Below, piece by piece: positions 6,843 to 57,129 of a stretch of 64,000 bases of DNA. Location of the stretch: positions 2,754 to 66,753 of the forward strand of contig CAJQHK010000001.1 of NCBI GenBank assembly GCA_905478165.1, written 5' to 3'. The position numbers and the translations under genes were made by a program. The stretch comes from an uncultured Rickettsiales bacterium (lineage in GTDB: Bacteria > Pseudomonadota > Alphaproteobacteria > Rickettsiales > UBA1997). The notes below the pieces were generated by a model, which saw only the letters and a program-made list of their open reading frames with translations, did no database searches and had not been told where the DNA came from. Position 1 is the stretch's first letter. Each line of letters opens with the position of its first letter.

Positions 6843-8081
6843 ATGTCATATCAGGTCTTAGCAAGGAAATACAGGCCCAATACTCTTTTAGAGTTGGTGG
6901 GGCAAGATATATTAGTTACAACTCTATTATCATCAATTAAGCAAAATAAAATAGCTCACGCTTTTATTTTAAGTGGCATTCGTGGCGTTGGCAAAACGAC
7001 AACTGCCAGAATTATTGCTAAAGCACTTAATTGCGTTGGTGAAGATGGTAAATTGCAAGAGGCATCAGATCCTTGCGGAAAATGTCACGCTTGCATCTCT
7101 ATTGCCAATTCTACTTTTCCAGATGTAATAGAGATGGATGCCGCATCAAAAACTGGGGTTGACGACATAAGGGAGATAGTTGACAACATATCATACGCAA
7201 CCTCTATTGGTCGCTACAAAGTATATATCATTGATGAGGTGCACATGCTTAGTAATAACGCCTTTAATGCACTATTAAAGACTCTGGAAGAGCCACCTGC
7301 TCATGTTAAATTTATTTTTGCCACAACAGAGATTAAAAAAATTCCAATTACTATAATATCTCGCTGTCAAAGATTTGACCTAAAGAGGCTTTCTAGTGCA
7401 GATATTGCCAATCATCTTAAAAATATATTGCAAAAAGAATCATTTGAGGCTGAAGATGGAGCGATAAATTTAATAGCAAACTTGTCTGGAGGGTCAATGC
7501 GAGACTCACTTTCCCTTCTAGATCAAGCCTTATCATACAATAATTATCAAAAATTACTAACTTCTGATAAGTTTGAGGAAATGATTGGTTTGGTAGATAA
7601 ATCCCAAATTGTTGATTTTATTAAAATCATATTGGCAGGAAAAGTAGAAGAGGTCATTAATATGTTTAATGATTTTTATGACAAATCTATTGATATAACT
7701 TCTCTTGCTAATGATTTATTGGAAATAGTTCATGATATAACATTGGTTAAAACCATTGATAATTACAAGATAGTGAACATATCAGATGATTGTTATAAAA
7801 AAATACAAGATATTACGAACGTCATCTCAGTAGCCTCCCTTGCTAGAATTTGGCAGATGCTTTTGAAAGGGGTAGATGAGTTAAAGAATTCACCAAATCA
7901 CAAAATGTCCTTCGAAATGATTCTTATTAGAATTTGCTATATGTCTAATGTAGCAAATTTTGAACAAATACTTGTTGATAATAACAAAAATATTACTCAA
8001 AATAGGAGTGCGGAATCTGTTTTAGCGGGGGAAGCTTTACGAAACTTCCCAGAATCAAAAATTATAAATCAAAATGACTGA
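6843..8081 (+). CDS. dnaX: DNA polymerase III clamp-loader subunit gamma/tau (gamma-length only)
   Basis: 412 aa with Walker A GIRGVGKTT, a zinc module CGKCHAC, Walker B IIDEVHML and the SRC motif ISRCQRF. Confidence 0.9.
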   Translation: MSYQVLARKYRPNTLLELVGQDILVTTLLSSIKQNKIAHAFILSGIRGVGKTTTARIIAKALNCVGEDGKLQEASDPCGKCHACISIANSTFPDVIEMDAASKTGVDDIREIVDNISYATSIGRYKVYIIDEVHMLSNNAFNALLKTLEEPPAHVKFIFATTEIKKIPITIISRCQRFDLKRLSSADIANHLKNILQKESFEAEDGAINLIANLSGGSMRDSLSLLDQALSYNNYQKLLTSDKFEEMIGLVDKSQIVDFIKIILAGKVEEVINMFNDFYDKSIDITSLANDLLEIVHDITLVKTIDNYKIVNISDDCYKKIQDITNVISVASLARIWQMLLKGVDELKNSPNHKMSFEMILIRICYMSNVANFEQILVDNNKNITQNRSAESVLAGEALRNFPESKIINQND

Positions 8082-9120
8082 TAAAAAGGCAAAAATTCTT
8101 TGCGTAGAGGATGAGGTTGATATTAGAGAAAATATAGTTGAGATCTTGAGGGATGAAGGGTTTGAGGTAATGGCAGCAGTAGATGGGGCGGAAGCATTCG
8201 AAATTTTAAAAAATAATCAAGATATAGAGTTGGTATTATCTGATATCATGATGCCAAATTTAAGTGGCTTAGAATTATTAGACAAAGTTAGAAACAGTAA
8301 ATTTGACCATTGCAATGTGCCATTTATCTTACTAACCGCCCTTTCATCAAAGGATGACGTAATTAATGGTAGCAAAGTGGGTGCGAATGATTATATTATC
8401 AAGCCAATCGATTTTGACATTTTAATTGCCAAAATTAGTGAAAAAATATTGAATTCCACAAGGATTCAGAGTCGATTTATTAACAATATTAAAAACATTA
8501 CAGATCAAATATCAAATATCTTGCCAAATAACATGGTGGATAATGTTAAAATTATCAATCATCTTTCGGAGGTCTTAAGAACTGAGCCTTATGGGCCATT
8601 TTCTCATCCAAAATATATAACTGATATCAACAGAATACATGCTGCGTCTTTAAAGCTCACAGCTTTAATTAATAATTACCTAGAGGGTGAGTATGTGGCT
8701 AACTCTATAGATAAGAACGCATCTATATGTAACCCAGTGGAGCTATTAAATGATACTATTTCTGGTTTAAACCCAAAATTAAGGGAATATATTTATGTAG
8801 ATTTAGAAAATACTGATAGAATTCCTAAAGTTAAAATAGACTCCAATTTAATAGTCGAATCTATTAAAAAAACTTTATCTGTATTGCTAAAAGCTCATTT
8901 ATCAAATATTGATATAAGTATTGTTCGCGATCATTTAGATAGGGTGGTATTTGTACTTACTGTAAGAGACCACTTAGAGAAAGACAACATTACTAAAATA
9001 ATAGAAAGTAGAGGTTTTGATCGCAAATTACGTGAAGAAGATTATGATTTTGACATCCTATTTAATGGCGGTGAACTTTCTGCATTAATTTTTATACCAA
9101 CATTTAGGGTTTTAGAGTAA
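8074..9120 (+). CDS. response regulator receiver domain fused to an uncharacterised C-terminal domain (possibly a degenerate kinase-like fold)
   Basis: 348 aa. The receiver motifs are the CVEDEVD acidic pocket, LVLSDIMMP (phospho-Asp), LLTA and IIKP. The C-terminal ~220 aa lack any output motif I recognise. The start overlaps the dnaX stop (ATGACTGA, 8 nt). Confidence 0.7.
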   Translation: MTDKKAKILCVEDEVDIRENIVEILRDEGFEVMAAVDGAEAFEILKNNQDIELVLSDIMMPNLSGLELLDKVRNSKFDHCNVPFILLTALSSKDDVINGSKVGANDYIIKPIDFDILIAKISEKILNSTRIQSRFINNIKNITDQISNILPNNMVDNVKIINHLSEVLRTEPYGPFSHPKYITDINRIHAASLKLTALINNYLEGEYVANSIDKNASICNPVELLNDTISGLNPKLREYIYVDLENTDRIPKVKIDSNLIVESIKKTLSVLLKAHLSNIDISIVRDHLDRVVFVLTVRDHLEKDNITKIIESRGFDRKLREEDYDFDILFNGGELSALIFIPTFRVLE

Positions 9121-11946: not shown

Positions 11947-12262
11947 CAACAACTACCAAATTTAATTATATAAAATTGAGCAAAAATATTTTTTTCTTAA
12001 ACTAGCTGTATCACGATCTAATGACCTAAATTAACTTTCTTCTGCCTTTTTTAGAATAATATTTGTAAAGTATAATTGACTATTATACCAAATCCCATCT
12101 AAAATACTAGATAAGATAACAAAAAATTTAACTTTATCTTTTTTGTTAAAATAGACAAAAAGACTTGTAAAATATATTTATATTCCGGTCATTTTTTATC
12201 TATAATTTTTCTCAAAAATCTTTTGTTAAATGATTAATTATGCAAAATCAGATACAATAAAA

Positions 12263-14622: not shown

Positions 14623-14794
14623 AACCCCCACCAAAATCAAAGATTTTGACTCCCCCTTAGGGGGAGTTGATAATGTGCCGAGACTTACTTTCGACTTAAC
14701 TCCCCCTTAGGGGGGGGTTGATAATGTGCCGAGACTTACTTTCGACTTAACTCCCCCTAAGGGGGAGTCAAAATCTTTGATTTTGGTGGGGGTT
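14623..14794. repeat. modular nested palindrome (perfect 44-nt inverted arms enclosing two 33-nt direct units and three G/C hairpins)
   Basis: 14623-14666 is the exact reverse complement of 14751-14794. The unit ttgataatgtgccgagacttactttcgacttaa occurs at 14667-14699 and 14718-14750. The hairpin ctccccc-tta-gggggag occurs at 14650-14666, 14700-14717 and 14751-14767. Confidence 0.9.
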
Positions 14795-14865: not shown

Positions 14866-14941
14866 GGGGTTGTAGCTCAGCGGTTAGAGCAGGATGCTCA
14901 TAACGTCTTGGTCGTAGGTTCGATTCCTACCAGCCCCACCA
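14866..14941 (+). tRNA. tRNA with CAU anticodon (elongator tRNA-Met, or tRNA-Ile2 if lysidine-modified)
   Basis: 76-nt cloverleaf. Acceptor stem is GGGGTTG/CAGCCCC, and the D arm is GCTC-AGCGGTTA-GAGC. Anticodon arm is GGATG-CTCATAA-CGTCT, T arm is GTAGG-TTCGATT-CCTAC, and CCA is encoded. A G1:C72 pair and the lack of a GGG/CCC anticodon stem argue against an initiator. Confidence 0.9.
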
Positions 14942-16013: not shown

Positions 16014-16152
16014 ACACCAATTCCCATTTATAATGCGCAATACAGCAAAATATTTTAAGGTTAAAATTGTCAAAACACAACTACCCTACAACCTTAGAGC
16101 GCAAGGCTTTTTGGTAATTAGAAGTTTAAAAGATAAAGGTGGATTTTGGTAT
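16014..16152 (+). repeat. palindromic TIR-bounded dispersed repeat, copy A
   Basis: Aligns over most of its length with 56637-56807 and, in reverse complement, with 32669-32840, 18241-18412 and 57018-57129. The 31-mer at 16045-16075 is identical to the reverse complement of 32779-32809. Its termini acaccaattccc and ggattttggtat are mutually inverted. Confidence 0.85.
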
Positions 16153-18021: not shown

Positions 18022-18240
18022 TTCGTAATTTATCTTTCTTAAGGATGACCACCTTCTTTTGCACCCCTGTCATCACTAGGAAGAAGTTAGTCAACTTAGC
18101 AACAGCGCCCTTACAAAAGAACTACTATATTTTATAAATACCTTAGATAGTGATATTAACAACAATTCTTCTGAGAAATGCAGGATGTTAATAACTCAAA
18201 TTAATACAAAATACCCTCCGTGCGTGGATGAATATAAGTA

Positions 18241-18412
18241 ATACCAATTCCCATCTTTAAAATACACAAGTTAAGACAGATTTTTTCGAAATCTTTTTAT
18301 CCTTAAATCATCGAAAAGCCTTACACCCCATTAACATAGGTCGGGCATTTTTTAATAATTTATGCATAAAAATATTTCGAAAAAAAACTGCTTTAAAGGT
18401 AGGAATTTGTAT
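18241..18412 (-). repeat. palindromic TIR-bounded dispersed repeat, copy B
   Basis: The termini ataccaattcccatctttaaa and tttaaaggtaggaatttgtat are inverted. The core aaaagccttacacc and the arm tttttaataatttatgcataaaaatatttcg align with the reverse complement of copy A. The left and right arms are imperfect reverse complements. Confidence 0.85.
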
Positions 18413-18509
18413 AATGTGTCAAAAATTTAATCTTTACAGACTGGAACGGTTCGAGACGTAAACCCCCATAACGACGATAAAAAGGTCCCGTCGGGCAGGA
18501 AGTAGAGAG

Positions 18510-23649: not shown

Positions 23650-24416
23650 CAAAAATTAGCTGGTACGATATAAAAACGAAACTCAAACATATTCTTAGGC
23701 TTTTTTTCTATAGCCCTATGATGCAAGAGATTTTGGCCTATATTATAGTTTTTTACATGAAACTAATCTATTTCACTAGTAAAAAACAATATAAGAATTT
23801 AAACATCTTCCTTAGTTCCCTCGAAAAGGGTGAGGCGGTTATAATTTGCTCTTGGCATAATACAATCATGATAATGCCACTTTTGATGTTCGAGATGAAG
23901 AAAATTAAAAATCGCAAAGAAATGAACAGTCTATCTTCAAAGCATGGAGATGGCAAGATTGTTGGCAATGTTATGGATAAATTTGGATTTATCAATATCT
24001 CAGGATCCTCAAATAACAAAAAAGGTCGCGGCATCACTATTTATGATTTAAAAAAAATTATTAAAAATCTCAGGAAGGGCTATAGTTTGGCAATTACTCC
24101 TGACGGACCAAGAGGCCCTCGATATAAAATCAACAGTCAAGTAGTAAATATTGCCAAATTATCTGGCGCAAAAATTATACCATCTAGCTGTAGCATATCT
24201 CGATCAATTCGCTTAAATAGTTGGGATCGATTTGTCTTTCCTTTACCATTCTCGACATTATCCTATTATTTTGATCAAAAAATTGCAATTTCTAAACATA
24301 TAAAAAAAGAAGAAATAGAAAATAAAAATTTAGAAATTGAAAACAAACTCAACAAATGTCGAGAGAGATTAGATTTTATATTTAAAACTTGCCAAACAAA
24401 ATCAAATAAGGTATAA
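23646..24416 (+). CDS. DUF374-type lysophospholipid acyltransferase family protein
   Basis: 256 aa with an N-terminal TM helix and the motifs CSWHN, SSKHGDG and ITPDGPRGP, which are typical of DUF374 proteins. Confidence 0.6.
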   Translation: MTKISWYDIKTKLKHILRLFFYSPMMQEILAYIIVFYMKLIYFTSKKQYKNLNIFLSSLEKGEAVIICSWHNTIMIMPLLMFEMKKIKNRKEMNSLSSKHGDGKIVGNVMDKFGFINISGSSNNKKGRGITIYDLKKIIKNLRKGYSLAITPDGPRGPRYKINSQVVNIAKLSGAKIIPSSCSISRSIRLNSWDRFVFPLPFSTLSYYFDQKIAISKHIKKEEIENKNLEIENKLNKCRERLDFIFKTCQTKSNKV

Positions 24417-24424
24417 TTACTATC

Positions 24425-24770
24425 GTGCCCTGCACTATGGTGATAAACGTGATTTAGAATAGATGTTTTGCGGACTCGGGGGCGGTACCCGACATCTCCA
24501 CCATTGTCGACTACTTAAAATTAATTATGGGGATGAAATAGCTTCGACGCGCACAGTAAAAAAATTATTTTTACCCGACAAGATACAGTCGGTTTAATTT
24601 AGCAATAAATTAAATATTAGTTCAAAACAAATAAACGCAAAAATAAACTTTGCTAATGATAATATTGCTCAAAATGAGGATGTTAGGTTAAAAGCAGTAG
24701 CTTTCGCTTAATATCTAATATTATCGGGGTTTTGAGGTTCTCCTGTCAACAGAAAAACCTCGCTCTTTTA
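24425..24770 (+). ncRNA. ssrA: two-piece (circularly permuted) tmRNA
   Basis: The acceptor piece ends ...GCGGACTCGGGGGCGGTACCCGACATCTCCACCA at 24503. The coding piece starts GGGGATGAAATAGCTTCGACG at 24529. GGGGATG pairs with CATCTCC, including the G3:U pair that confers Ala identity. The tag frame at 24652-24711 encodes ANDNIAQNEDVRLKAVAFA then a stop. A terminal hairpin gaggtt...aacctc with a T-run lies at 24734-24770. The outer boundaries are approximate. Confidence 0.8.
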
Positions 24771-24786
24771 ACTTAAAAGTACTTTG

Positions 24787-25248
24787 ATGAAAGATTTTAT
24801 AGGTTACGGCCAAATCATAGAAGATGCGATGAGGAGTGCTGTCAAAAGCGTTCTAACAAAAGTTCAAGATAGTGGGTTACAAGGTGAGCATCATTTTGTT
24901 ATATCATTTCTAACAAACGACAAAAATACCAAAATATCAACAATACTAAAAAAAAAATTTCCTAATGAGATGGTCATAGTAGTCCAGCATCAATTTAAAG
25001 ATTTGAAAATTAATGATGATAATTTTGAAATCTTTTTAAGTTTTGATGGTAACTATGAAAAATTAGTTGTTTCTTTTGCCTCAATCACCTCTTTTTCCGA
25101 CCCCTCAATGAATTTTGGCGTTAAATTTAATTTCAATATTGAGGGAGAAATTCATAACGGCACGACAGAAGAAAAATCAGAAAAATCCAACATAGACCTA
25201 TCTCAAAAAATTATATCGCTAGATGATTTTAGAAAAGGTCATGATTAA
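24787..25248 (+). CDS. sspB: ClpXP adaptor SspB (alphaproteobacterial type)
   Basis: The motifs GEHHFVISF, MVIVVQHQFKDLKI and SFSDPSMNFGVKF match the SspB-alpha fold pattern. The C-terminal IISLDDFRKG resembles the ClpX-binding tail. Confidence 0.8.
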   Translation: MKDFIGYGQIIEDAMRSAVKSVLTKVQDSGLQGEHHFVISFLTNDKNTKISTILKKKFPNEMVIVVQHQFKDLKINDDNFEIFLSFDGNYEKLVVSFASITSFSDPSMNFGVKFNFNIEGEIHNGTTEEKSEKSNIDLSQKIISLDDFRKGHD

Positions 25249-31446: not shown

Positions 31447-32074
31447 AATAAATAAAATTTCTTAATAGTTTAATTCCCGATTCGCCGCTTTTTTCTGGGT
31501 GAAACTGAGTAGCTACGATATTGTCTTTTGCAATGATGGCCACTAGATCTTGGCCATAAGATACCTTAGCAATTACATCATCATATTTTTTTGGCACAAA
31601 ATGATAACTGTGTACAAAATAAAAATGTTCATAATTCTTTATGCCCTCTAATATATAATGGTCTTGGCATATATTTAACTCATTCCAGCCGATATGAGGT
31701 ATTTTTAATTCATCATTATGATTATCAATCTTAATGACCTTACCAGGAATAAACCCTAAGCCTAAATTTTTACCATATTCATGACCAAAATCAGCTAATA
31801 GTTGCATCCCAACACAAATTCCAAGAAAGGGTTTTTTTTTAACTAGAACCTCTTCCCTTAAGATGTCTGTCATTTTTTCAATCTTAGATAATGATCCTAT
31901 GCAATCGGCAAAAGCACCGACTCCAGGCAGGATAATTTTATTAGATTTTTTAAGATCTTCCGGATCAGAAGAGATTTGAAATTTATAATGCTCAGTATCT
32001 ATTAAAGTTAAGGCGTTATAAACAGACCTAAGATTTCCAGATCCGTAATCAATGATTGTAACTATTTTTTTCAT
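31433..32074 (-). CDS. hisH: imidazole glycerol phosphate synthase glutaminase subunit HisH-type amidotransferase
   Basis: 213 aa with IIDYGSGNLRSV, GICVGMQLL and FHPEKSG. It overlaps the lpxB start by 14 nt. Confidence 0.85.
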   Translation of the reverse strand: MKKIVTIIDYGSGNLRSVYNALTLIDTEHYKFQISSDPEDLKKSNKIILPGVGAFADCIGSLSKIEKMTDILREEVLVKKKPFLGICVGMQLLADFGHEYGKNLGLGFIPGKVIKIDNHNDELKIPHIGWNELNICQDHYILEGIKNYEHFYFVHSYHFVPKKYDDVIAKVSYGQDLVAIIAKDNIVATQFHPEKSGESGIKLLRNFIYYEQI

Positions 32075-32092
32075 TGTAGGTGGGAATTGATT

Positions 32093-32821
32093 TTATTCAT
32101 GCCAAAAAGAGCCAAAATATTTATAATTAGTGCCGTAAAACATACTACTTGACATGGCGCCCTTTCCTTCCCCACCATCAGCAGTGCTACTTCTAGTAAA
32201 ATCAAAAACAGAGCTAAAAATGTTATTATCAGCAACAGATTGGTTAAGCCCAAAACCCAAATTTTCATTTTTACCAACAATTGTGTTATCAACACTTCCA
32301 AGACTCCAATCAAAGTAACTAGGGCTTACAATATATTCGTCAGATCCGGCATCATTAATAAATCTTATAATATAGTTAAAGCAAAAACCATAACCCCTAG
32401 AAACTGCAAATTTATATTCAGAATCATCTATTAATCTTGGGTCGTATTTAAAGCCTTTATATCTTGCTCTATAAAATGTATTGCCCCTAGAGCTCAACAC
32501 ACTTTCGCAACCATCTCGAAAACCCTTTTTAAATGTTGGTGTTCCTTCGGGGATTTTAATATTAGTACCCGAAAAAAAGGTTGTGTCAGCACCTCGAAAC
32601 CACTGACATCCAGATATAACAAGGGTTGCCACAAAGATCAAGTGAGCACTTCTAAAAAATCGGAAACAACACCACTTCTTATTTACAATATTGGGTAAGC
32701 AATAGCGTGATCTAGTTTTATCTTTTAAGACTCTAATTGCCAAAAAGCCTCGCACCCCATTAATATAGGATAATCGTTTTTTGACAATTTTAACCTTAAA
32801 ATATTTTGCTATATAGTGCAT
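32093..32821 (-). CDS. hypothetical lipoprotein; annotated 5' end is supplied by repeat copy C, so the true start is uncertain
   Basis: A lipobox LVISGC follows a hydrophobic stretch (AHLIFVATLVISGC). No family was recognised for the mature part. Codons 1 to about 51 lie inside the repeat at 32669-32840. Confidence 0.5.
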   Translation of the reverse strand: MHYIAKYFKVKIVKKRLSYINGVRGFLAIRVLKDKTRSRYCLPNIVNKKWCCFRFFRSAHLIFVATLVISGCQWFRGADTTFFSGTNIKIPEGTPTFKKGFRDGCESVLSSRGNTFYRARYKGFKYDPRLIDDSEYKFAVSRGYGFCFNYIIRFINDAGSDEYIVSPSYFDWSLGSVDNTIVGKNENLGFGLNQSVADNNIFSSVFDFTRSSTADGGEGKGAMSSSMFYGTNYKYFGSFWHE

Positions 32822-32840
32822 TACAAATGGAAAATGGTAT
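32669..32840 (-). repeat. palindromic TIR-bounded dispersed repeat, copy C
   Basis: Its reverse complement aligns with copies A and D. The identical 31-mer lies at 32779-32809. The termini acaccacttctt and aaatggaaaatggtat match the family ends. Confidence 0.85.
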
Positions 32841-33073
32841 AATTTATCGCCGCCATATTCAGGTCAGACTTAATATTGATAAGGTGATAATTTTTTTCAA
32901 ATTATTTTGCAACACCAACTTCCCCCCATAATAAGTCTCTGTGGAACCTAAAATCTCCTTTGATATTGTTCTATTTTTTAACTTTACGATACTCATTTGC
33001 CTTAAGTAAACTGCACTTCCAAATTTAAAAGAATCTCTGTGAATATTTTAATCTCAGACGGCTCCTAATTAAT

Positions 33074-34417
33074 CTAAAGTGGTAATATAATTTTTATACA
33101 TAAACCGCCGTAAGAACTTCTGCCAGCTGATATTTGCCCTCCATGAGAAGTTATGATGTCCTTAGCGATAGATAAGCCAAGACCCGTCCCTATTATATCA
33201 AGATTACGAGAATAGTCAAGCCTATAAAAAGGCCTGAATATTTTGTCTAAATCGCCATCCTCAACGCCTAAGCCATTATCACCTACCTCAATAATTATAT
33301 TATTCCTACTTCGTTTTGCAGAAATATATACATGATCCTTGGTGTATTTAACGGCATTGTCAATTACATTTCTAAGAGCTCTTTTTAAATTATTTGCCTT
33401 GCAAGATATTTTAATTTTTTCGCCAATTCTTCCTCTATAATCAATATTTTTATGAAGAGACTGATAAGAACTTACTATTTCATCAAAATATAATTTAGCA
33501 TTTATTTCACTACTATTCTCTGATTGATTTCCCTTATTAAATTCTAGATATTCATTTATCATCGATTCCATGTCTAATATATCAGACCCCAGATTAGAAA
33601 GTTGGTCATTTTTATCCATTAAAGCTATCTGCAACTTCATTCTTGTAAGTAACGTTCTAAGATCGTGAGAAACTCCTGATAGCATTAAAGTTCTTTGATT
33701 AATTTGACGACTTATCCTCCCTTTCATCTGAATTAAAGATATCCCAAGAGACCTGATTTCACTAGCACCTTTTATTTTAAAATTAACAACATCTACGCCC
33801 ATACCTAATTTTTGTGCGTTCCTTTTTAAAGATCTAATGGATTTTATTTGATTCTTTATAAATAATATTGAGATCAAAGAGGTTATGGTCGAAATTACTA
33901 TGATCCAAGCAATGAACACCCCCCTTCTCGAGGTAATAATTTTTTTCTTAGGTACGTTAAGTTTCAAAACATCATCTCCCATCTGCACTTCTATTGTAAC
34001 TCTGTTTTTATCTTGAGATGGATAAATTATAAATAACTCGATTTCGCCCCTTTTCAAGCTATCTCTTAAATAAGTGAATGAATCTATGATTGGAGATACA
34101 TTAATAAATCCTAAAAAATTTTTAGCTTTATAATTATAATATTTGGGGTGTATTTTTTTATGTCTAATAATTTCCGATGTAATTTCTGATTTTTTAGAAA
34201 AACTAGGAATTAATTCGGCATCCATATCTTTTTGATATATTTGATATATTAAGTATACTTGGCTAGACATTGATTCAGCCATGTGTTTATTAATATTGTT
34301 TATGTAGTTATAATAAAAAATATAAATAATGGTTATTTGAACTATAACTGATGGTATGAGTATTATTAATAAAAAACGATTCAATAATGATTTTGGTATA
34401 AATTTTTTGAGGAACAT
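33074..34417 (-). CDS. sensor histidine kinase (EnvZ/PhoR-like architecture)
   Basis: 447 aa with two TM helices. It has H-box SGVSHDLRT, N-box NVIDNAVKYT, G1 DNGLGV and G2 GTGLGLSIA. Confidence 0.82.
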   Translation of the reverse strand: MFLKKFIPKSLLNRFLLIILIPSVIVQITIIYIFYYNYINNINKHMAESMSSQVYLIYQIYQKDMDAELIPSFSKKSEITSEIIRHKKIHPKYYNYKAKNFLGFINVSPIIDSFTYLRDSLKRGEIELFIIYPSQDKNRVTIEVQMGDDVLKLNVPKKKIITSRRGVFIAWIIVISTITSLISILFIKNQIKSIRSLKRNAQKLGMGVDVVNFKIKGASEIRSLGISLIQMKGRISRQINQRTLMLSGVSHDLRTLLTRMKLQIALMDKNDQLSNLGSDILDMESMINEYLEFNKGNQSENSSEINAKLYFDEIVSSYQSLHKNIDYRGRIGEKIKISCKANNLKRALRNVIDNAVKYTKDHVYISAKRSRNNIIIEVGDNGLGVEDGDLDKIFRPFYRLDYSRNLDIIGTGLGLSIAKDIITSHGGQISAGRSSYGGLCIKIILPL

Positions 34418-34506
34418 ATTTATCTCTAAGTTAGTGAAGTGGTAAGATTTTTTGCTGATTTAGGGACAATAAGGGCAAATAAAAAATCTTCTTTAACTTA
34501 CACACT

Positions 34507-35451
34507 TTAAAGGCTGGAAATGGGGCCATACTTGTCAATAATACTAGTAATCTCATCTAAATTACTGTAAGAAATCGTAATTTTACCTTTATTTTTATTA
34601 GGGTTAAACTGAGATTTAATTTTAACATTAGAGCCTAGTATATTTTTTAATCTATCCGTTAAATATTGAGTCTTGCCGTCGCACTCATCAACAGTTATTT
34701 CCTTCGATTCTTTTGTCCCTTTTATATCCTTAGCTTTTTCAGGCGTAAATAGTTCTTCAGTCAAGTCAGAACACAAAACCTCAGTCTGCCTTACGGATAA
34801 AGACTCTGTAATAATTTTTTGGGCAATTTTAATTATATCGCTTCGATTCATGATCACCTTCACATGGCCCATACTTAACAACCGACCTTCAATCATCTCT
34901 TGAACCTCTAACGGCACAGTAAGTAACCTTAATAAATTTGCTACATGACTACGACTTTTGCCAATTTTTTGAGCTATATCTTTTTGAGAATAATAAAATT
35001 CTTCAATCAAACGCTTATAAGCCTTAGCTTCCTCTAAAATTAACAGATCCTCCCTTTGAATGTTTTCTAATATTCCAATAGCTAATGCTTGGTCACCATC
35101 AATGTCACGAATTATCGCTGGAACTTCTTTCAGTTCGGCCAGCTTAGCCGCTCTAAACCGCCTTTCGCCAGATATAATTTCATAAATATCTTGGTCCTTA
35201 CTGGCCTTTCTAATTATAATTGGCTGAATAATACCATACTCCTTGATAGACTCGCCTAACTCAGTGATTGTGTCATCGTTAAATTTTGATCTTGGCTGAT
35301 ATGTGCCAGCAATAATCTTGCTAACTGAAATCTGGTACACGGTAAAACCCCTGCCGACATTTGTCATTTTAACCCTGCCACTACTCATCCTCCTTTCTTC
35401 ACCAAGTAAAACTGAAAGACCTCGACCTAATTTTGGATGATTGCTAGACAT
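34507..35451 (-). CDS. parB: chromosome partitioning protein ParB
   Basis: 314 aa with an N-terminal LGRGLSVLL, the ParB box GERRFRAAKLA and an HTH (SQKDIAQKIGKSRSHVANLLRLL). Confidence 0.88.
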   Translation of the reverse strand: MSSNHPKLGRGLSVLLGEERRMSSGRVKMTNVGRGFTVYQISVSKIIAGTYQPRSKFNDDTITELGESIKEYGIIQPIIIRKASKDQDIYEIISGERRFRAAKLAELKEVPAIIRDIDGDQALAIGILENIQREDLLILEEAKAYKRLIEEFYYSQKDIAQKIGKSRSHVANLLRLLTVPLEVQEMIEGRLLSMGHVKVIMNRSDIIKIAQKIITESLSVRQTEVLCSDLTEELFTPEKAKDIKGTKESKEITVDECDGKTQYLTDRLKNILGSNVKIKSQFNPNKNKGKITISYSNLDEITSIIDKYGPISSL

Positions 35452-35517
35452 TATTTGATGATTCTTGTATAATTACATTACCTATATTAGATAATTTTAT
35501 TTAAATAACTAATTAAC

Positions 35518-37215
35518 TTATTCGGTTGATTTGTTAATTTTGTCATTTAAATCTCTAAACTCATTTAAAAATGTATCAATATCATTATTATCAGCTCCAA
35601 TTAAAAGGAAGGCGTTTTTTGCCAATTGTAAACTTGTTTCCATGTCAGGAGACACAATGGATCCCGCTCCAACCATCCTAAATCTATCATCATTATTATT
35701 AGAATTAACCTTTGTCACAACATTAACATGAGGAAAATTATCATGAATAAATCTGGCGGTTTTGAGACAATTAAGATCGTCCTCTGCCGCTATAATTACT
35801 GAATTTGCAGTATTTATGCCTGAACTAATTAAGATATCTTTATTTAAAGAGTCTCCATAATGAACATTATGATTATTTACCCTTCCAGCCTGAACAGATC
35901 TGTAATTATTTCCAAGAGTTATGTATGTGACGTCTTTTTGCTTTAAAAGATTAGTTACAATGCGACCGATTTTACCATATCCTATGATAATTACGTGATC
36001 CGATAAATCACCAACATCTCTTTTTAACTTATTGTCCTTCAGCGCCTCAAGAACATAAATAGACCTTTTAATTTTACTACCAATTATGGCTAGTATCGGC
36101 GTAAATGCCATAGTAACCGTAACTACGGTGATTAATAGCTGCGTTGTGCTCGCAGACATAATGCTCATATTTTGAGCCTCTAAAAACACTACAAAAGCAA
36201 ACTCTCCCCCTTGCGACAATATCAGTCCCGTATGAATTGACGGGGCAATTGGAAATCTAAAAATACGACACAACAATATGATAACAAAAGCCTTTAAAAA
36301 TATTAAAGAAGCAGATAAAAATATGATTAAGTCAAACTTCTGTAATAAAAATTGTAAATCGAAATCCATCCCAACGGTTAAGAAAAAAAGTCCCATCAAT
36401 AAGGATTTAAAAGAAGAGGTTTCTCTTTCAACTCGATATTTATATTCAGTTTCGGCAACCATTAATCCGGCAACAAAGGCGCCCAAAGTAAATGACATCC
36501 CCATGTAATTAGTAATAGCTGCAGAACCTAGGATGATCAACAATGTCGTGCTTAAAAATAAGGTATCATTCCTGGTCGAAACTATAATTCTATAAATCGG
36601 TCTTAAAAACAATCTTCCTACAGCGAATATAATAACAAATGCTAATATCGCCCTAAAAAAAGCATCGGCAATAGCACTATGGAGCTGAGCCTCCTGCATT
36701 GAGATTAAGGGCAGCAATACTAGAATTGGTATCACAGCTAAATCCTGCATTATTAAAGCCGATATTGACAATCTACCAACTCGCGTTGATTGTTCAGAAC
36801 TTTCTGCTATAACTTGCATTACTATGGCTGTAGAAGAGAGGGCTAAAGATGATGATATAATTAAAGCTACGCCATTATCAAAACTAAAGACGCTTGTTGC
36901 TATGATGTAAAAAAGAATAGTTGTAAGTAAAAATTGCAAACCTCCAAAACCAATAACATATTTTCTCATAGCCTTTAACTTGTCGAAAGTTAACTCTAGG
37001 CCTATACTAAACAACAAAAATACTACTCCAAATTCTGCGATAGAGGTGGTAATTTCACTAGATTGAATGTAGGCAAAGCCAGAAGGTCCAATTGCAACGC
37101 CTGCAAATAAATACCCAAGTACCGGACTCAATTTTAATTGCTTAAAGAAGGCAATCATAAATATCGATGTCGATAATAGAATTATTAGATCTTTTAAGTA
37201 AGAGACTTCGTGCAT
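35518..37215 (-). CDS. CPA2-family monovalent cation:proton antiporter with C-terminal KTN/TrkA-N domain (KefB/KefC-like)
   Basis: 565 aa. A polytopic N-terminal domain is followed by the Rossmann motif IIIGYGKIGR. Confidence 0.8.
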   Translation of the reverse strand: MHEVSYLKDLIILLSTSIFMIAFFKQLKLSPVLGYLFAGVAIGPSGFAYIQSSEITTSIAEFGVVFLLFSIGLELTFDKLKAMRKYVIGFGGLQFLLTTILFYIIATSVFSFDNGVALIISSSLALSSTAIVMQVIAESSEQSTRVGRLSISALIMQDLAVIPILVLLPLISMQEAQLHSAIADAFFRAILAFVIIFAVGRLFLRPIYRIIVSTRNDTLFLSTTLLIILGSAAITNYMGMSFTLGAFVAGLMVAETEYKYRVERETSSFKSLLMGLFFLTVGMDFDLQFLLQKFDLIIFLSASLIFLKAFVIILLCRIFRFPIAPSIHTGLILSQGGEFAFVVFLEAQNMSIMSASTTQLLITVVTVTMAFTPILAIIGSKIKRSIYVLEALKDNKLKRDVGDLSDHVIIIGYGKIGRIVTNLLKQKDVTYITLGNNYRSVQAGRVNNHNVHYGDSLNKDILISSGINTANSVIIAAEDDLNCLKTARFIHDNFPHVNVVTKVNSNNNDDRFRMVGAGSIVSPDMETSLQLAKNAFLLIGADNNDIDTFLNEFRDLNDKINKSTE

Positions 37216-37338
37216 AATTACTGGTCAGTATTGTAAAATGAGTATAGCTTGTTTAAACTGACAATTGGTGTGGTCGATACTGACCTCGTATTAATCAGTT
37301 AGAATTATCTTACTGATTCATAAATAAATCAAGAATAA

Positions 37339-38532
37339 ATGTTGGAAATTGAGGGGATAAAGATAGCGACAATAAATAGTGGTATTAAATATAAGGATCG
37401 CGACGATCTGTTATTGATTGAGATGCCAAAAGGTTCAATTGTCAGTGGTGTTTTTACCAAATCTAACATTGTTGGAGATTGCATTACCGAGGCTCGTAAA
37501 AATATTAAAAATGGAAGTGTGAAGTCTTTGATCGTTAACTCTGGAAATGCCAATGTTTTTAACGGTAAATTTGGTCAGGAGGCTGTCAACAATATTAACA
37601 AAACTGCAGCTAATTTGTTTAATTGTAAACAAGAAGAAGTTTATAGCTTTTCAACCGGAGTAATTGGTGAAATTTTAAATGACAAACTAATTACCGAAAA
37701 ACTACCAAAGATGTTTCAAAAATTGGATCAAAATGAAGATTATTGGGAAAAAGCTGCCTCAGCAATATTGACAACCGACCTTAAAACAAAAAAAATTAGC
37801 AAAAAATTTGAAATTAATGGTCAAAAAGTGCGGATTAATGCCATAGCCAAAGGTTCCGGTATGATAGCGCCAAATATGGCGACAATGCTTTCCTTTATTT
37901 TCACTGACATCAATATTGATCAAAAGATTTTACAAAAAATATTTAGCGAAATTAACGAAATTAGCTTTAATTCAATTACAGTTGATTCTGATACCTCTAC
38001 TAGTGATGCGGCAATGATTTTTTCAACTAAAAAAGTAGGAAATTATGAAATTACCGATATTAATGACCCAAGTTTAGTTATTTTTAAGGAAAAGCTATCT
38101 GAGATTATGATTTATTTGGCGAAAGAGATAGTGGCCGATGGTGAAGGTGCCAAGAAATTAATAGAAATTAACCTTAGAAATGCCAAATCTCATATTTCTG
38201 CCAAAAATATTGCTTTTTCTGTAGCGAATTCGCCATTAGTTAAGACTGCAATTGCTGGATCCGATCCCAATTGGGGTCGTATCCTAATGGCAGTTGGTAA
38301 AGTAGGGGAGAAAATTGACCCAACAAAAATCAATATCAAAATTGGTGACAATAATATAGTAACAAATGGTGAGAAAGATCCTTCATATAGCGAAGAAAAA
38401 ACCCATAACTACTTAAAGAGTGATAAAATTTATATTGAAATTGACCTAAATATTGGCAGTTTTTCTAGAAGAGTTTGGAGTTGCGACTTCAATGAGGAAT
38501 ACATTAAGATTAACAAGGATTACAGAAGTTAA
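37339..38532 (+). CDS. argJ: bifunctional glutamate N-acetyltransferase / amino-acid acetyltransferase
   Basis: 397 aa with the ArgJ autoprocessing region KGSGMIAPNMATMLSFIFTD and the C-terminal pattern DLNIG...WSCDF. Confidence 0.9.
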   Translation: MLEIEGIKIATINSGIKYKDRDDLLLIEMPKGSIVSGVFTKSNIVGDCITEARKNIKNGSVKSLIVNSGNANVFNGKFGQEAVNNINKTAANLFNCKQEEVYSFSTGVIGEILNDKLITEKLPKMFQKLDQNEDYWEKAASAILTTDLKTKKISKKFEINGQKVRINAIAKGSGMIAPNMATMLSFIFTDINIDQKILQKIFSEINEISFNSITVDSDTSTSDAAMIFSTKKVGNYEITDINDPSLVIFKEKLSEIMIYLAKEIVADGEGAKKLIEINLRNAKSHISAKNIAFSVANSPLVKTAIAGSDPNWGRILMAVGKVGEKIDPTKINIKIGDNNIVTNGEKDPSYSEEKTHNYLKSDKIYIEIDLNIGSFSRRVWSCDFNEEYIKINKDYRS

Positions 38533-38578
38533 TCTATCTTTTCGATGTCAATTATCAATTTTATTAGCTATTTTTTAA

Positions 38579-39104
38579 TTATTTATAAAAATATTAGCAT
38601 TCGCCGCAAATGATGGTAAAAAGTCAACCAACAAACAGCTTGCAGCATATTCAGCGGGGTTACTAAAAAATACTCAAACTAAGATTTTAGATTTAAAATG
38701 ATTAAAAACTTCCATTATTTAGAGCAAACAAGGGGTCTAATCTTGGTAAGTCAGAATTGACGCAGGATTTTTTATCAGAAATTGGAGATAATGACGCTAT
38801 TATTATATCATTTGCAGAACATAGTGGTTCATACAGAGCTGCTTATAACAACCTTTCTAATTTGCGTTACTCTCAAACCATTCCAAAATGGTAATTATTG
38901 ATATAGTACCATTTTAAAAACTATGTTAAAAAAACTAAACAATCTATTTTTATCTTTTTACCCGACCAAAATTAGCAAAGCTTAATGGTATCTGTAAAAA
39001 CTGAGGTCTCTTATTTTTCTATAAAGGTAATTGATGAAAATGGTCATTCAGGAAGTGAAAATGGGATTAAGAACTGTTTAAGTTATTTTTTTACAATTTC
39101 TTAA
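38579..39104 (+). pseudogene. decayed NAD(P)H-dependent FMN reductase-like gene
   Basis: No ATG is present. Fragments lie in different frames and are separated by stops. They read KILAFAANDGKKSTNKQLAAYSAGLLKNTQTKILDLK, then ELTQDFLSEIGDNDAIIISFAEHSGSYRAAYNNLSNL, then ...VIDENGHSGSENGIKNCLSYFF. Their order matches the FMN_red family layout (ILxxSGSxRxxSxN ... PEYNGSYxxxLKN). Confidence 0.55.
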
Positions 39105-39209
39105 TATAGGGTGTAAACCCCGTCAAAGTAGCGAAGCTACTTTGACAAAAGAGCGGTATGCTTTTTACCCATTTTCAGCGGGTAGGTGATTGAAGATTTG
39201 TGAGTCGAA

Positions 39210-50228: not shown

Positions 50229-50304
50229 AAATATTTTGACACACTACCAACCCCCATCTTTAGGGCGGTTTTTAAAAACCTTTAGCGCAAATGTTAATTA
50301 GCCA

Positions 50305-56602: not shown

Positions 56603-56636
56603 AATTATTATTTATTTGCGGTAATTAAGCTAATAC

Positions 56637-56807
56637 AATACTAACTTTAACTTATAATGCAGTATGTAGAAAAATATTTTAGGATTAAAATTGCTAAAAA
56701 AGACGGGCCTACCTTAATAGAGTGCAAGGCTTTTTTGCAACTAGAAGCTTAAAAAATGAAACTAGGTCATGCTATTATTTGTCCAATACTATAATGAGAA
56801 TTGGTAC
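56637..56807 (+). repeat. palindromic TIR-bounded dispersed repeat, copy D
   Basis: Aligns with copy A through the segments ataatgcagtatgtagaaaaatattttaggattaaaattgctaaaaaa and gagtgcaaggcttttttgcaactagaag, and it ends in gagaattggtac. The left terminus is degenerate. Confidence 0.8.
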
Positions 56808-57017
56808 AACACTATTTAAACTAGATGATAATTCACCCCCAAGTCAAGCTTTTTTGGAAATTACTATCTAAGAAGGCTCTGAAAAATCTATATACGCACC
56901 TTAGTAACCGTCTTTTTTACTTAGATTTACACTCTTTTTAGCCTAAAAGTTAATAAATTCTAGACTAAAATATTACGATTCTAAGGTCTTTGTAAGTTCC
57001 TTAGTCTTGCCTCCGCC

Positions 57018-57129
57018 ATCATCTCTTTATCAAAAAGCCTTATACCCTATTAATATAGGGCAGACATGCTTTAATAGTTTGTAAATAAAAATATTTTGAA
57101 AAAACTGCTTTAAAGATGGAAATTGGCAT
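57018..57129 (-). repeat. palindromic TIR-bounded dispersed repeat, copy E (left part degenerate or truncated)
   Basis: Aligns with copy B through aaaaagccttataccctattaatatagggcagacatgctttaatagtttgtaaataaaaatattttgaaaaaactgctttaaagatggaaattggcat. It may extend to about 56960. Confidence 0.75.

Follow-up and report, generated by a model that had tools for sequence, protein, structure and literature searches.

The palindromic repeats dispersed through the window, by which we mean the whole 64-kb stretch of DNA that was analysed, are very probably copies of a non-autonomous MITE that is moved in trans by an IS630-family DDE transposase whose own element has the same termini, with duplication of a 3-bp T-W-A target. 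The MITE reading had been proposed from the sequence alone, and it is borne out here by terminal inverted repeats, target duplications, a filled/empty site pair and a cognate IS630-family element. The family is most like the IS630-derived MITEs RUP and Orientia mISOt2, but with a Tourist-like 3-bp TTA/TAA duplication. It had not been recognised as belonging to any described family, and we also found no description of it in Rfam, in plasmid and phage collections or in the literature searched; blastn against PLSDB plasmids and the phage collections gave no similarity to the element.

The five stretches originally noted are real and interrelated. A profile made from their own alignment retrieves all five (nhmmer E 8e-36 to 8e-52), and pairwise scores lie 4-28 sd above shuffled controls, with the E-F pair (2.2 sd) as the sole exception. 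The 31-nt block at 16045-16075 is, as claimed, identical to the reverse complement of 32779-32809 (copies A and C), and the shared core holds up as the pattern AAATATTTT-N27/28-CCTA-N15-AGGCTTTT, which is present at five places in the window but in none of 100 dinucleotide-shuffled versions. Subfamily profiles run over the window added a near-full sixth copy (F), a half copy (G) and a remnant (H), giving eight copies or part-copies (A-H) and three fragments. Copies A-H make up 1.7% of the window (about 1.1 kb in total), and pairwise identity among the window copies is 68-83%. Of the three sites first taken for isolated fragments of a terminus, 32912-32935 and 50244-50262 are remnants, but 12085-12110 is the end of near-full copy F. 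The features are listed below.

12086..12232, - strand: copy F, type III-like, about 72% identity to the HJD.7 copies
16015..16151, + strand: copy A, type I, 137 bp after loss of about 35 bp internally
18242..18411, - strand: copy B, type II, 170 bp, the best preserved, with both terminal repeats
32670..32839, - strand: copy C, type I, 170 bp
32912..32935, - strand: remnant of a solo terminal repeat, separated from copy C by about 75 bp
34439..34528, + strand: half copy G, right half of type II, conserved in contig L034
38907..38979, - strand: remnant H, type III-like right arm, adjoining a deletion relative to L034
50245..50273, + strand: terminal-repeat remnant (TACCAACCCCCATCTTTAGGGCGG...), like the left part of the 44-bp mini-element
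56639..56806, + strand: copy D, type I, 168 bp
57018..57128, - strand: copy E, type II, 5' two thirds recognisable, 5' flank TAA
61871..61907, + strand: 5' arm of a type I copy, a weak remnant (E 0.002)

Copy A separates the divergent genes mrp/apbC and virB3; its 5' end is mutated to CACC and its 3' flank is TTA. Copy B, between the convergent era and nadD genes, is one long hairpin (DNA z -7.2) and has kept its 3-bp duplication intact (TAA at 18239-18241 and 18412-18414 on the + strand). The flanks of copy C, in the orientation of the element, are TTA and TTG, and its orthologue is L034 6758-6927; the solo repeat near it corresponds to L034 6666-6681, which reads AGAGGGGAATTGGTAT and has one mismatch to the consensus. 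Copy D, between the divergent yifB and exonuclease genes, is flanked by the non-canonical direct repeat CAA/CAA (56636-56638 and 56807-56809). The 3' third of copy E (to about 56951) is unrecognisable through decay, and copy F, immediately upstream of purQ, retains its 3' terminal repeat and TAA flank but has lost its 5' end. Every copy had been placed in a spacer or at the 5' end of a gene; spacers do hold the copies, but with half copy G it is a gene's 3' end that is overlapped.

Intact copies measure 168-170 bp, with ends 5'-TACCAATTCCC...GGGAATTGGTA-3', and are imperfect palindromes over their full length with terminal inverted repeats of about 20 bp (TACCAATTCCCAYCTWWAAA). Terminal inverted repeats of the form TACCAATTCCCAYCT...AGRTGGGAATTGGTA are present in window, MAG and metagenome copies alike, while overall copy size ranges from 34 to 198 bp. 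Among 64 non-redundant copies with both ends, the flanks are TTA/TTA at 19, TAA/TAA at 16 and mixed TTA/TAA at 8 (Fisher p 4.8e-5); direct 3-bp repeats thus occur at 35 of the 43 copies with TTA or TAA on both sides (p 2e-5). Flanking bases that formed part of the inverted repeat would show complementary, not identical, middle bases at the two ends. Direct repeats other than TWA are uncommon (CAA/CAA at window copy D, and AAA/AAA), and they favour a 3-bp over a 1-bp duplication. The target as reconstructed is (not T)-T-W-A-(mostly T).

The sequence-only reading had pointed to empty orthologous sites as the way to define the exact ends, and one clean filled/empty pair, from two related genomes, does so. 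Removal of the 169-bp copy at 6111-6279 of contig L015 together with one TTA leaves a gap-free junction (AAAATAACTTACATACT) with the TARA contig L112. Since the filled and empty sites differ by exactly the element plus one TTA, the element transposes, and the comparison fixes both its ends and the 3-bp length of the duplication. We rejected the inner TA as the duplicated bases, which the empty site AACTTACATACT contradicts, and also a TA duplication with a one-base asymmetric end, as both TTA and TAA flanks are seen with a single orientation of the MITE and with a single orientation of the IS. The window at 38888-38909 was considered as an empty site relative to L034 and set aside, because the larger deletion in the window also takes part of a gene. 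At the position of remnant H, L034 has an additional type II copy and an intact gene; between window 38700-38910 and L034 290-800, the 3' part of this gene and the adjoining type II copy have been lost from the window. Judged by eye, the gene resembles one for an NAD(P)H-dependent FMN reductase. It is whole in L034, the 92%-identical relative, and its remainder in the window looks like a pseudogene.

The partner element emerged from an examination of 43 terminal repeats that lack a MITE body. In L096, an exact 20-nt terminal repeat, preceded by TTA, stands 75 nt upstream of a decayed transposase gene with Tc3/IS630-type helix-turn-helix domains and the motifs DESRFG...MDGAGW...NPIE. Homologues of this gene are abundant, on contigs of about 1.1-2.5 kb, and loci L131-L143 (the DNA of two homologues) contain an intact element of 1,085 bp and 30% G+C, with termini TACCAAWTCCCATCTTTA...TAAAGATGGGATTTGGTA. 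It has two genes, orfA (158 aa) and orfB (163 aa), which overlap at an A9 run. The conceptually fused protein scores 221.5 bits with the NCBIfam model NF033545, 'IS630 family transposase' (cut-off 100), and also matches Pfam DDE_3. MITE and IS share 18-20 of their 20 terminal bases. Ten IS copies have both ends on the contig, and their flanks are TAA/TAA at four loci, TTA/TTA at two and unequal at four; the unequal flanks possibly come from chimeric assembly of short contigs, some of which share one flank with another contig. In L134 the orfB of an IS copy is interrupted by a MITE, and the HJD.7 contig L033 has an IS remnant that consists of the last 42 codons and the terminal repeat, followed by TTA.

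No IS is present in the 64-kb window, and the sequence examined from HJD.7 and JBLHPX01 has no intact one. A search for multi-copy ORFs that might encode a transposase in the MAG loci found none, and those pairs of terminal repeats 0.4-4 kb apart that were inspected span ordinary genes without a transposase. IS and MITE resemble each other over no more than some 19 nt at the 5' terminus and some 25 nt at the 3' terminus; the MITE therefore did not arise by simple deletion from the IS copies seen. L063 has, at about 7719-8625, an ORF for a TrwC-type relaxase (Pfam E 9e-55), separated by some 0.9 kb from a terminal repeat without a MITE body; the ORF may belong to a conjugative element that transfers copies between lineages.

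Much shorter derivatives of the MITE also occur. Where L091 has a full copy, L093, from a sister strain, has at the same site, between flanks that are 100% identical, a 34-bp palindrome made of two terminal repeats. Internally deleted versions of 56-106 bp and head-to-head junctions are numerous in HJD.7 and metagenome contigs. Three unrelated sites hold a 44-bp mini-element, and every one of them has a separate TAA or TTA duplication; very short versions thus seem to move. A 28-bp unit, TACCAAATCCCATCTTTGTGAGTTGGTA, usually followed by TGAGGATT, was seen at eight sites in metagenome contigs of 35-39% G+C (L044, L045, L049, L050, L076, L082 and L108). It looks like either a derived mini-element or a part of a different repeat from another organism.

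The MITE codes for nothing. That its copies are free of a transposase had been stated before, and six-frame translation agrees, with no open frame above 56 codons and no family match. Most likely, then, it would be mobilised in trans by the DDE transposase of the 1,085-bp IS630-family element. This transposase would probably consist of orfA, with the helix-turn-helix, and orfB, with the DDE_3 domain, joined by slippage on the A9 run; we infer that frameshifting fuses the two. Insertion would take place at T-W-A sites, those three bases being duplicated, and the copies would decay in spacers, with remodelled annotated ends of a few genes as a by-product. Shared termini, shared flanks and co-occurrence of IS and MITE are what suggest, at the level of sequence, that this particular transposase moves the MITE. 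The IS630/Tc1/mariner group duplicates TA, with Sailor (TATA) as the exception (PMC8533490), and a 3-bp duplication is therefore unexpected for an IS630-family element. A TWA duplication in IS630 is not described in the sources that we searched. Three-bp duplications are made by Zator elements.

A broader proposal, which we regard as possible but on the whole doubtful, brings three features together. The partner would represent an IS630 clade that may cut TWA with a 3-nt stagger, as PIF/Harbinger does, instead of the canonical TA; its substrate may need hardly more than the two termini of about 20 bp (compare the 44-bp and 34-bp versions); and the whole-length hairpin may be selected because it aids transposition or expression. 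If true, this would be an undescribed mechanistic variant within IS630/Tc1/mariner, and the short versions would be among the smallest mobile DNAs in bacteria. A 3-bp duplication by an IS630-type enzyme, if confirmed, would in itself bear on how the stagger is set in IS630/Tc1/mariner.

Because of the TWA duplication, we at first expected a MITE of Tourist type that depends on an IS5-family or PIF/Harbinger-type transposase, these being the classic duplicators of TTA/TAA; some IS5 subgroups also make 3-bp duplications. Published accounts describe 3-bp duplications for PIF/Harbinger elements (PMC2213677) and, for these and for Tourist MITEs such as mPing, a TTA/TAA duplication with short terminal repeats as seen here (PMC2213677, PMC4561436). 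Tourist MITEs, however, are eukaryotic and belong with a different transposase superfamily, whereas the partner found here scores as IS630 family and is the sole transposase element with matching termini and flanks. In the 878 kb examined, no terminal repeat has an IS5-like or Harbinger-like gene beside it. We set this partner aside when the IS630-family element with the same termini was found, and now consider it quite unlikely. A reading in which the repeats are in the first place not mobile DNA but genes for structured RNA, or hairpins with a regulatory role (as small RNA, terminator or promoter cassette), must account for the same duplications and precise empty site, which show insertion, although it would fit the location of all copies in spacers and the retention of a long hairpin across subfamilies through compensatory changes. 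The intact copies that we folded (B and those in L015 and L007) each form one long hairpin with z of -6.8 to -9.6, and the three subfamily consensus sequences fold alike, with two-sided changes between subfamilies at 12 of 67 pairs. In 38 natural copies the consensus structure has 35 pairs, and 96% of cells are paired compared with 37-64% when partners are slid, a figure that is inflated because the structure was derived from the same alignment that scored it and that is supportive rather than conclusive; two-sided changes fall at 19 consensus pairs, compared with 9-17 for slid partners. Every window copy had been expected to form one long hairpin, and this is so for B (z -7) but not for A, C, D, E and F (z -0.4 to -2.8), so that the fold is lost in most window copies. 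Copies also occur in both orientations, in divergent, convergent and tandem spacers. All Rfam families score far below threshold; the best scores for copy B are 14-21 bits against thresholds of 59-195, and over the whole window Rfam finds nothing but a tmRNA gene (two overlapping models) and two tRNAs. A promoter or terminator role was rejected because such motifs are no commoner in the copies than in shuffled sequence. We found no evidence for an RNA, promoter, terminator or coding function of the copies, and think it highly unlikely that a structured-RNA or regulatory function is what they are primarily for.

Membership in the Rickettsia palindromic element (RPE) families is suggested by the Rickettsiales label of the host and by the similar size and palindromic build, RPEs being palindromic repeats of 105-146 bp that form long stem-loops in AT-rich Rickettsiales genomes (PMC2229807). 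The consensus of type I even has one frame open over 56 codons, which 4% of shuffles match, but the consensus sequences of types II and III are not open, and we therefore do not regard RPE-style coding capacity as a feature of the family. Protein and RNA genes often contain RPEs as in-frame fusions that encode a conserved peptide, whereas the copies here are intergenic; none lies in frame within a conserved gene, and copy C, the only one to overlap an ORF, has been free of coding constraint. For RPEs, neither a transposase partner nor a clear target duplication is known, target duplication being unresolved according to a review (PMC2229807), whereas the MITE has both a clear duplication and a partner IS. 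The core motif is in no Rickettsia representative genome. Membership in an RPE family is thus extremely unlikely. The RPE likeness drawn from the sequence alone extends to the general architecture and no further, and the element is a MITE and in all likelihood not an RPE, set apart by its host, its coding behaviour and the absence of the core motif from Rickettsia.

Several observations bear on the identity of the host. The window carries virB3, era, nadD, purQ and parB and has a G+C content of about 32%. Its pyrophosphatase is about equally distant from the proteins of Ehrlichia, Rickettsia, Bartonella and Brucella, which argues that the host is not of the genus Rickettsia; the PDB codes of the compared pyrophosphatases are ones that we take to belong to these four genera. 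An 88%-identical protein carries the NCBI name '[Rickettsiales bacterium]'. An identical Era protein is present in 84 blocks of the assembly collection, of which the four listed contigs are ENA metagenome assemblies. The window also contains, at 24385-24802, a two-piece (permuted) alphaproteobacterial tmRNA gene with the tag peptide AKINFANDNIAQNEDVRLKAVAFA. This gene has no inserted repeat, unlike the RPE-bearing tmRNA genes of Rickettsia (PMC2229807).

Among bacterial elements, RUP of Streptococcus pneumoniae is a non-autonomous element of about 107 bp whose terminal repeats match those of IS630-Spn1; it is thought to be mobilised in trans and lies mostly in spacers, but also inserts into IS copies (PMC2229807). 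Here too the termini of the MITE match those of an IS630-family IS, and a MITE lies inside the IS in L134. RUP, however, targets and duplicates TA where our MITE duplicates TTA or TAA, has no sequence similarity to it and occurs in a different host phylum. The mISOt2a and mISOt2b elements of Orientia tsutsugamushi are MITEs that share terminal repeats with the resident ISOt2 (IS630 family) and are massively amplified (PMC2575882). They offer the same combination of a Rickettsiales MITE and an IS630-family IS with shared termini, but the core pattern has no match in representative genomes of Orientia, and the lineage here is uncultured and mostly marine. The Correia/NEMIS elements of Neisseria are MITEs of 100-160 bp that have terminal TA and are abundant in spacers (PMC2229807); they differ in duplicating TA, in having terminal repeats of about 24 bp and unrelated sequence, and in having no identified transposase.

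A scan of 185,579 species genomes for the core pattern matched 35 contigs of two MAGs (28 from HJD.7 and 7 from JBLHPX01), apart from three chance matches. The first of these MAGs, JALQXY01, is 'Rickettsiales bacterium HJD.7', and many of its matches are at contig ends. JBLHPX01 is labelled 'Ulvibacter sp.' (Bacteroidota), and its MITE-bearing contigs are L001, L013, L015, L020, L034, L035 and L037. One of them, L034, is 92% identical to the window over 7.3 kb (window 31597-38888), and the MITE-bearing contigs look mis-binned, or the MAG mislabelled. The terminal repeat was found in 88 metagenome stretches, mostly of 23-38% G+C and, by their contig names (TARA, ENA 'marine metagenome'), mostly marine; viral contigs gave no matches. 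In all, 158 matches to the element were recorded across the 878 kb of sequence examined. The copies fall mainly into three subfamilies, type I (A, C, D), type II (B, E, G) and type III (HJD.7, F, H), with additional variants from other metagenome samples (Ga0172372 and related contigs).

Mean identity is 92.5% among HJD.7 copies and 94% among marine type II copies, compared with 68-83% for the copies in the window. Copies C and G are at the same sites in L034, and both insertions therefore predate the split of the two genomes. In the window genome the family appears to be inactive, old and decaying selfish DNA confined to spacers, judging from the low identity of its copies, the loss of the hairpin from most of them, the two copies held in common with the 92%-identical relative and the lack of an IS in the window. 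In related genomes the element is, or recently was, active, as indicated by copies 92-94% identical and by one polymorphic insertion.

A few annotated genes take their ends from the copies. The listed start of the mrp ORF (ATG 16027) is inside the terminal repeat of copy A, and the metagenome gene callers agree on it. The terminal repeat of half copy G provides the parB-like ORF 34507-35451 (- strand) with its final 7 codons and its stop codon, TAA. In both the window and L034, the listed lipoprotein ORF (32093-32821 in the window) takes its first 51 codons, ATG included, from copy C. Between these two genomes, substitutions by codon position are 9/5/3 in the segment derived from copy C, where 14 of 51 residues differ, and 9/2/26 in the mature part of the lipoprotein, where 12 of 170 residues differ, so the copy C segment is without coding constraint. 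In homologues from other lineages the copy C segment is missing, and the lipoprotein begins about 25 residues ahead of the lipobox cysteine.

Gene callers are thus misled at the start or stop codons of mrp, the lipoprotein gene and parB, which are within copies. The copies also break MAG assemblies, as many HJD.7 copies are at contig ends, and they can be used as strain markers. Nothing is overturned by these results, as MITEs, Rickettsiales ones included, are well known; what they provide is a fully anatomised MITE and parent, with ends, target, empty site, transposase and decay products, in uncultured, mostly marine Rickettsiales-like bacteria whose mobile DNA has hardly been described so far.

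Two other kinds of palindrome were noticed in the window. The first, at 14623-14794, is an unrelated, G+C-richer element of 172 bp that lies just upstream of a tRNA-Met gene (14866-14941); its two 51-bp tandem units are enclosed by perfect terminal inverted repeats of 46 nt (AACCCCCACCAAAATCAAAGATTTTGACTCCCCCTTAGGGGGAGTT). Four metagenome contigs of the same organism carry it unchanged, and L015 has a related terminus at 1664. The second is a small palindrome of the type CCCCGTCAAA...TTTGAC (for example ccccgtcaaagtagcgaagctactttgac) at window 39116-39150 and at about 215-245 of L034. It is conserved between the two, and a second, similar copy is located nearby in L034.
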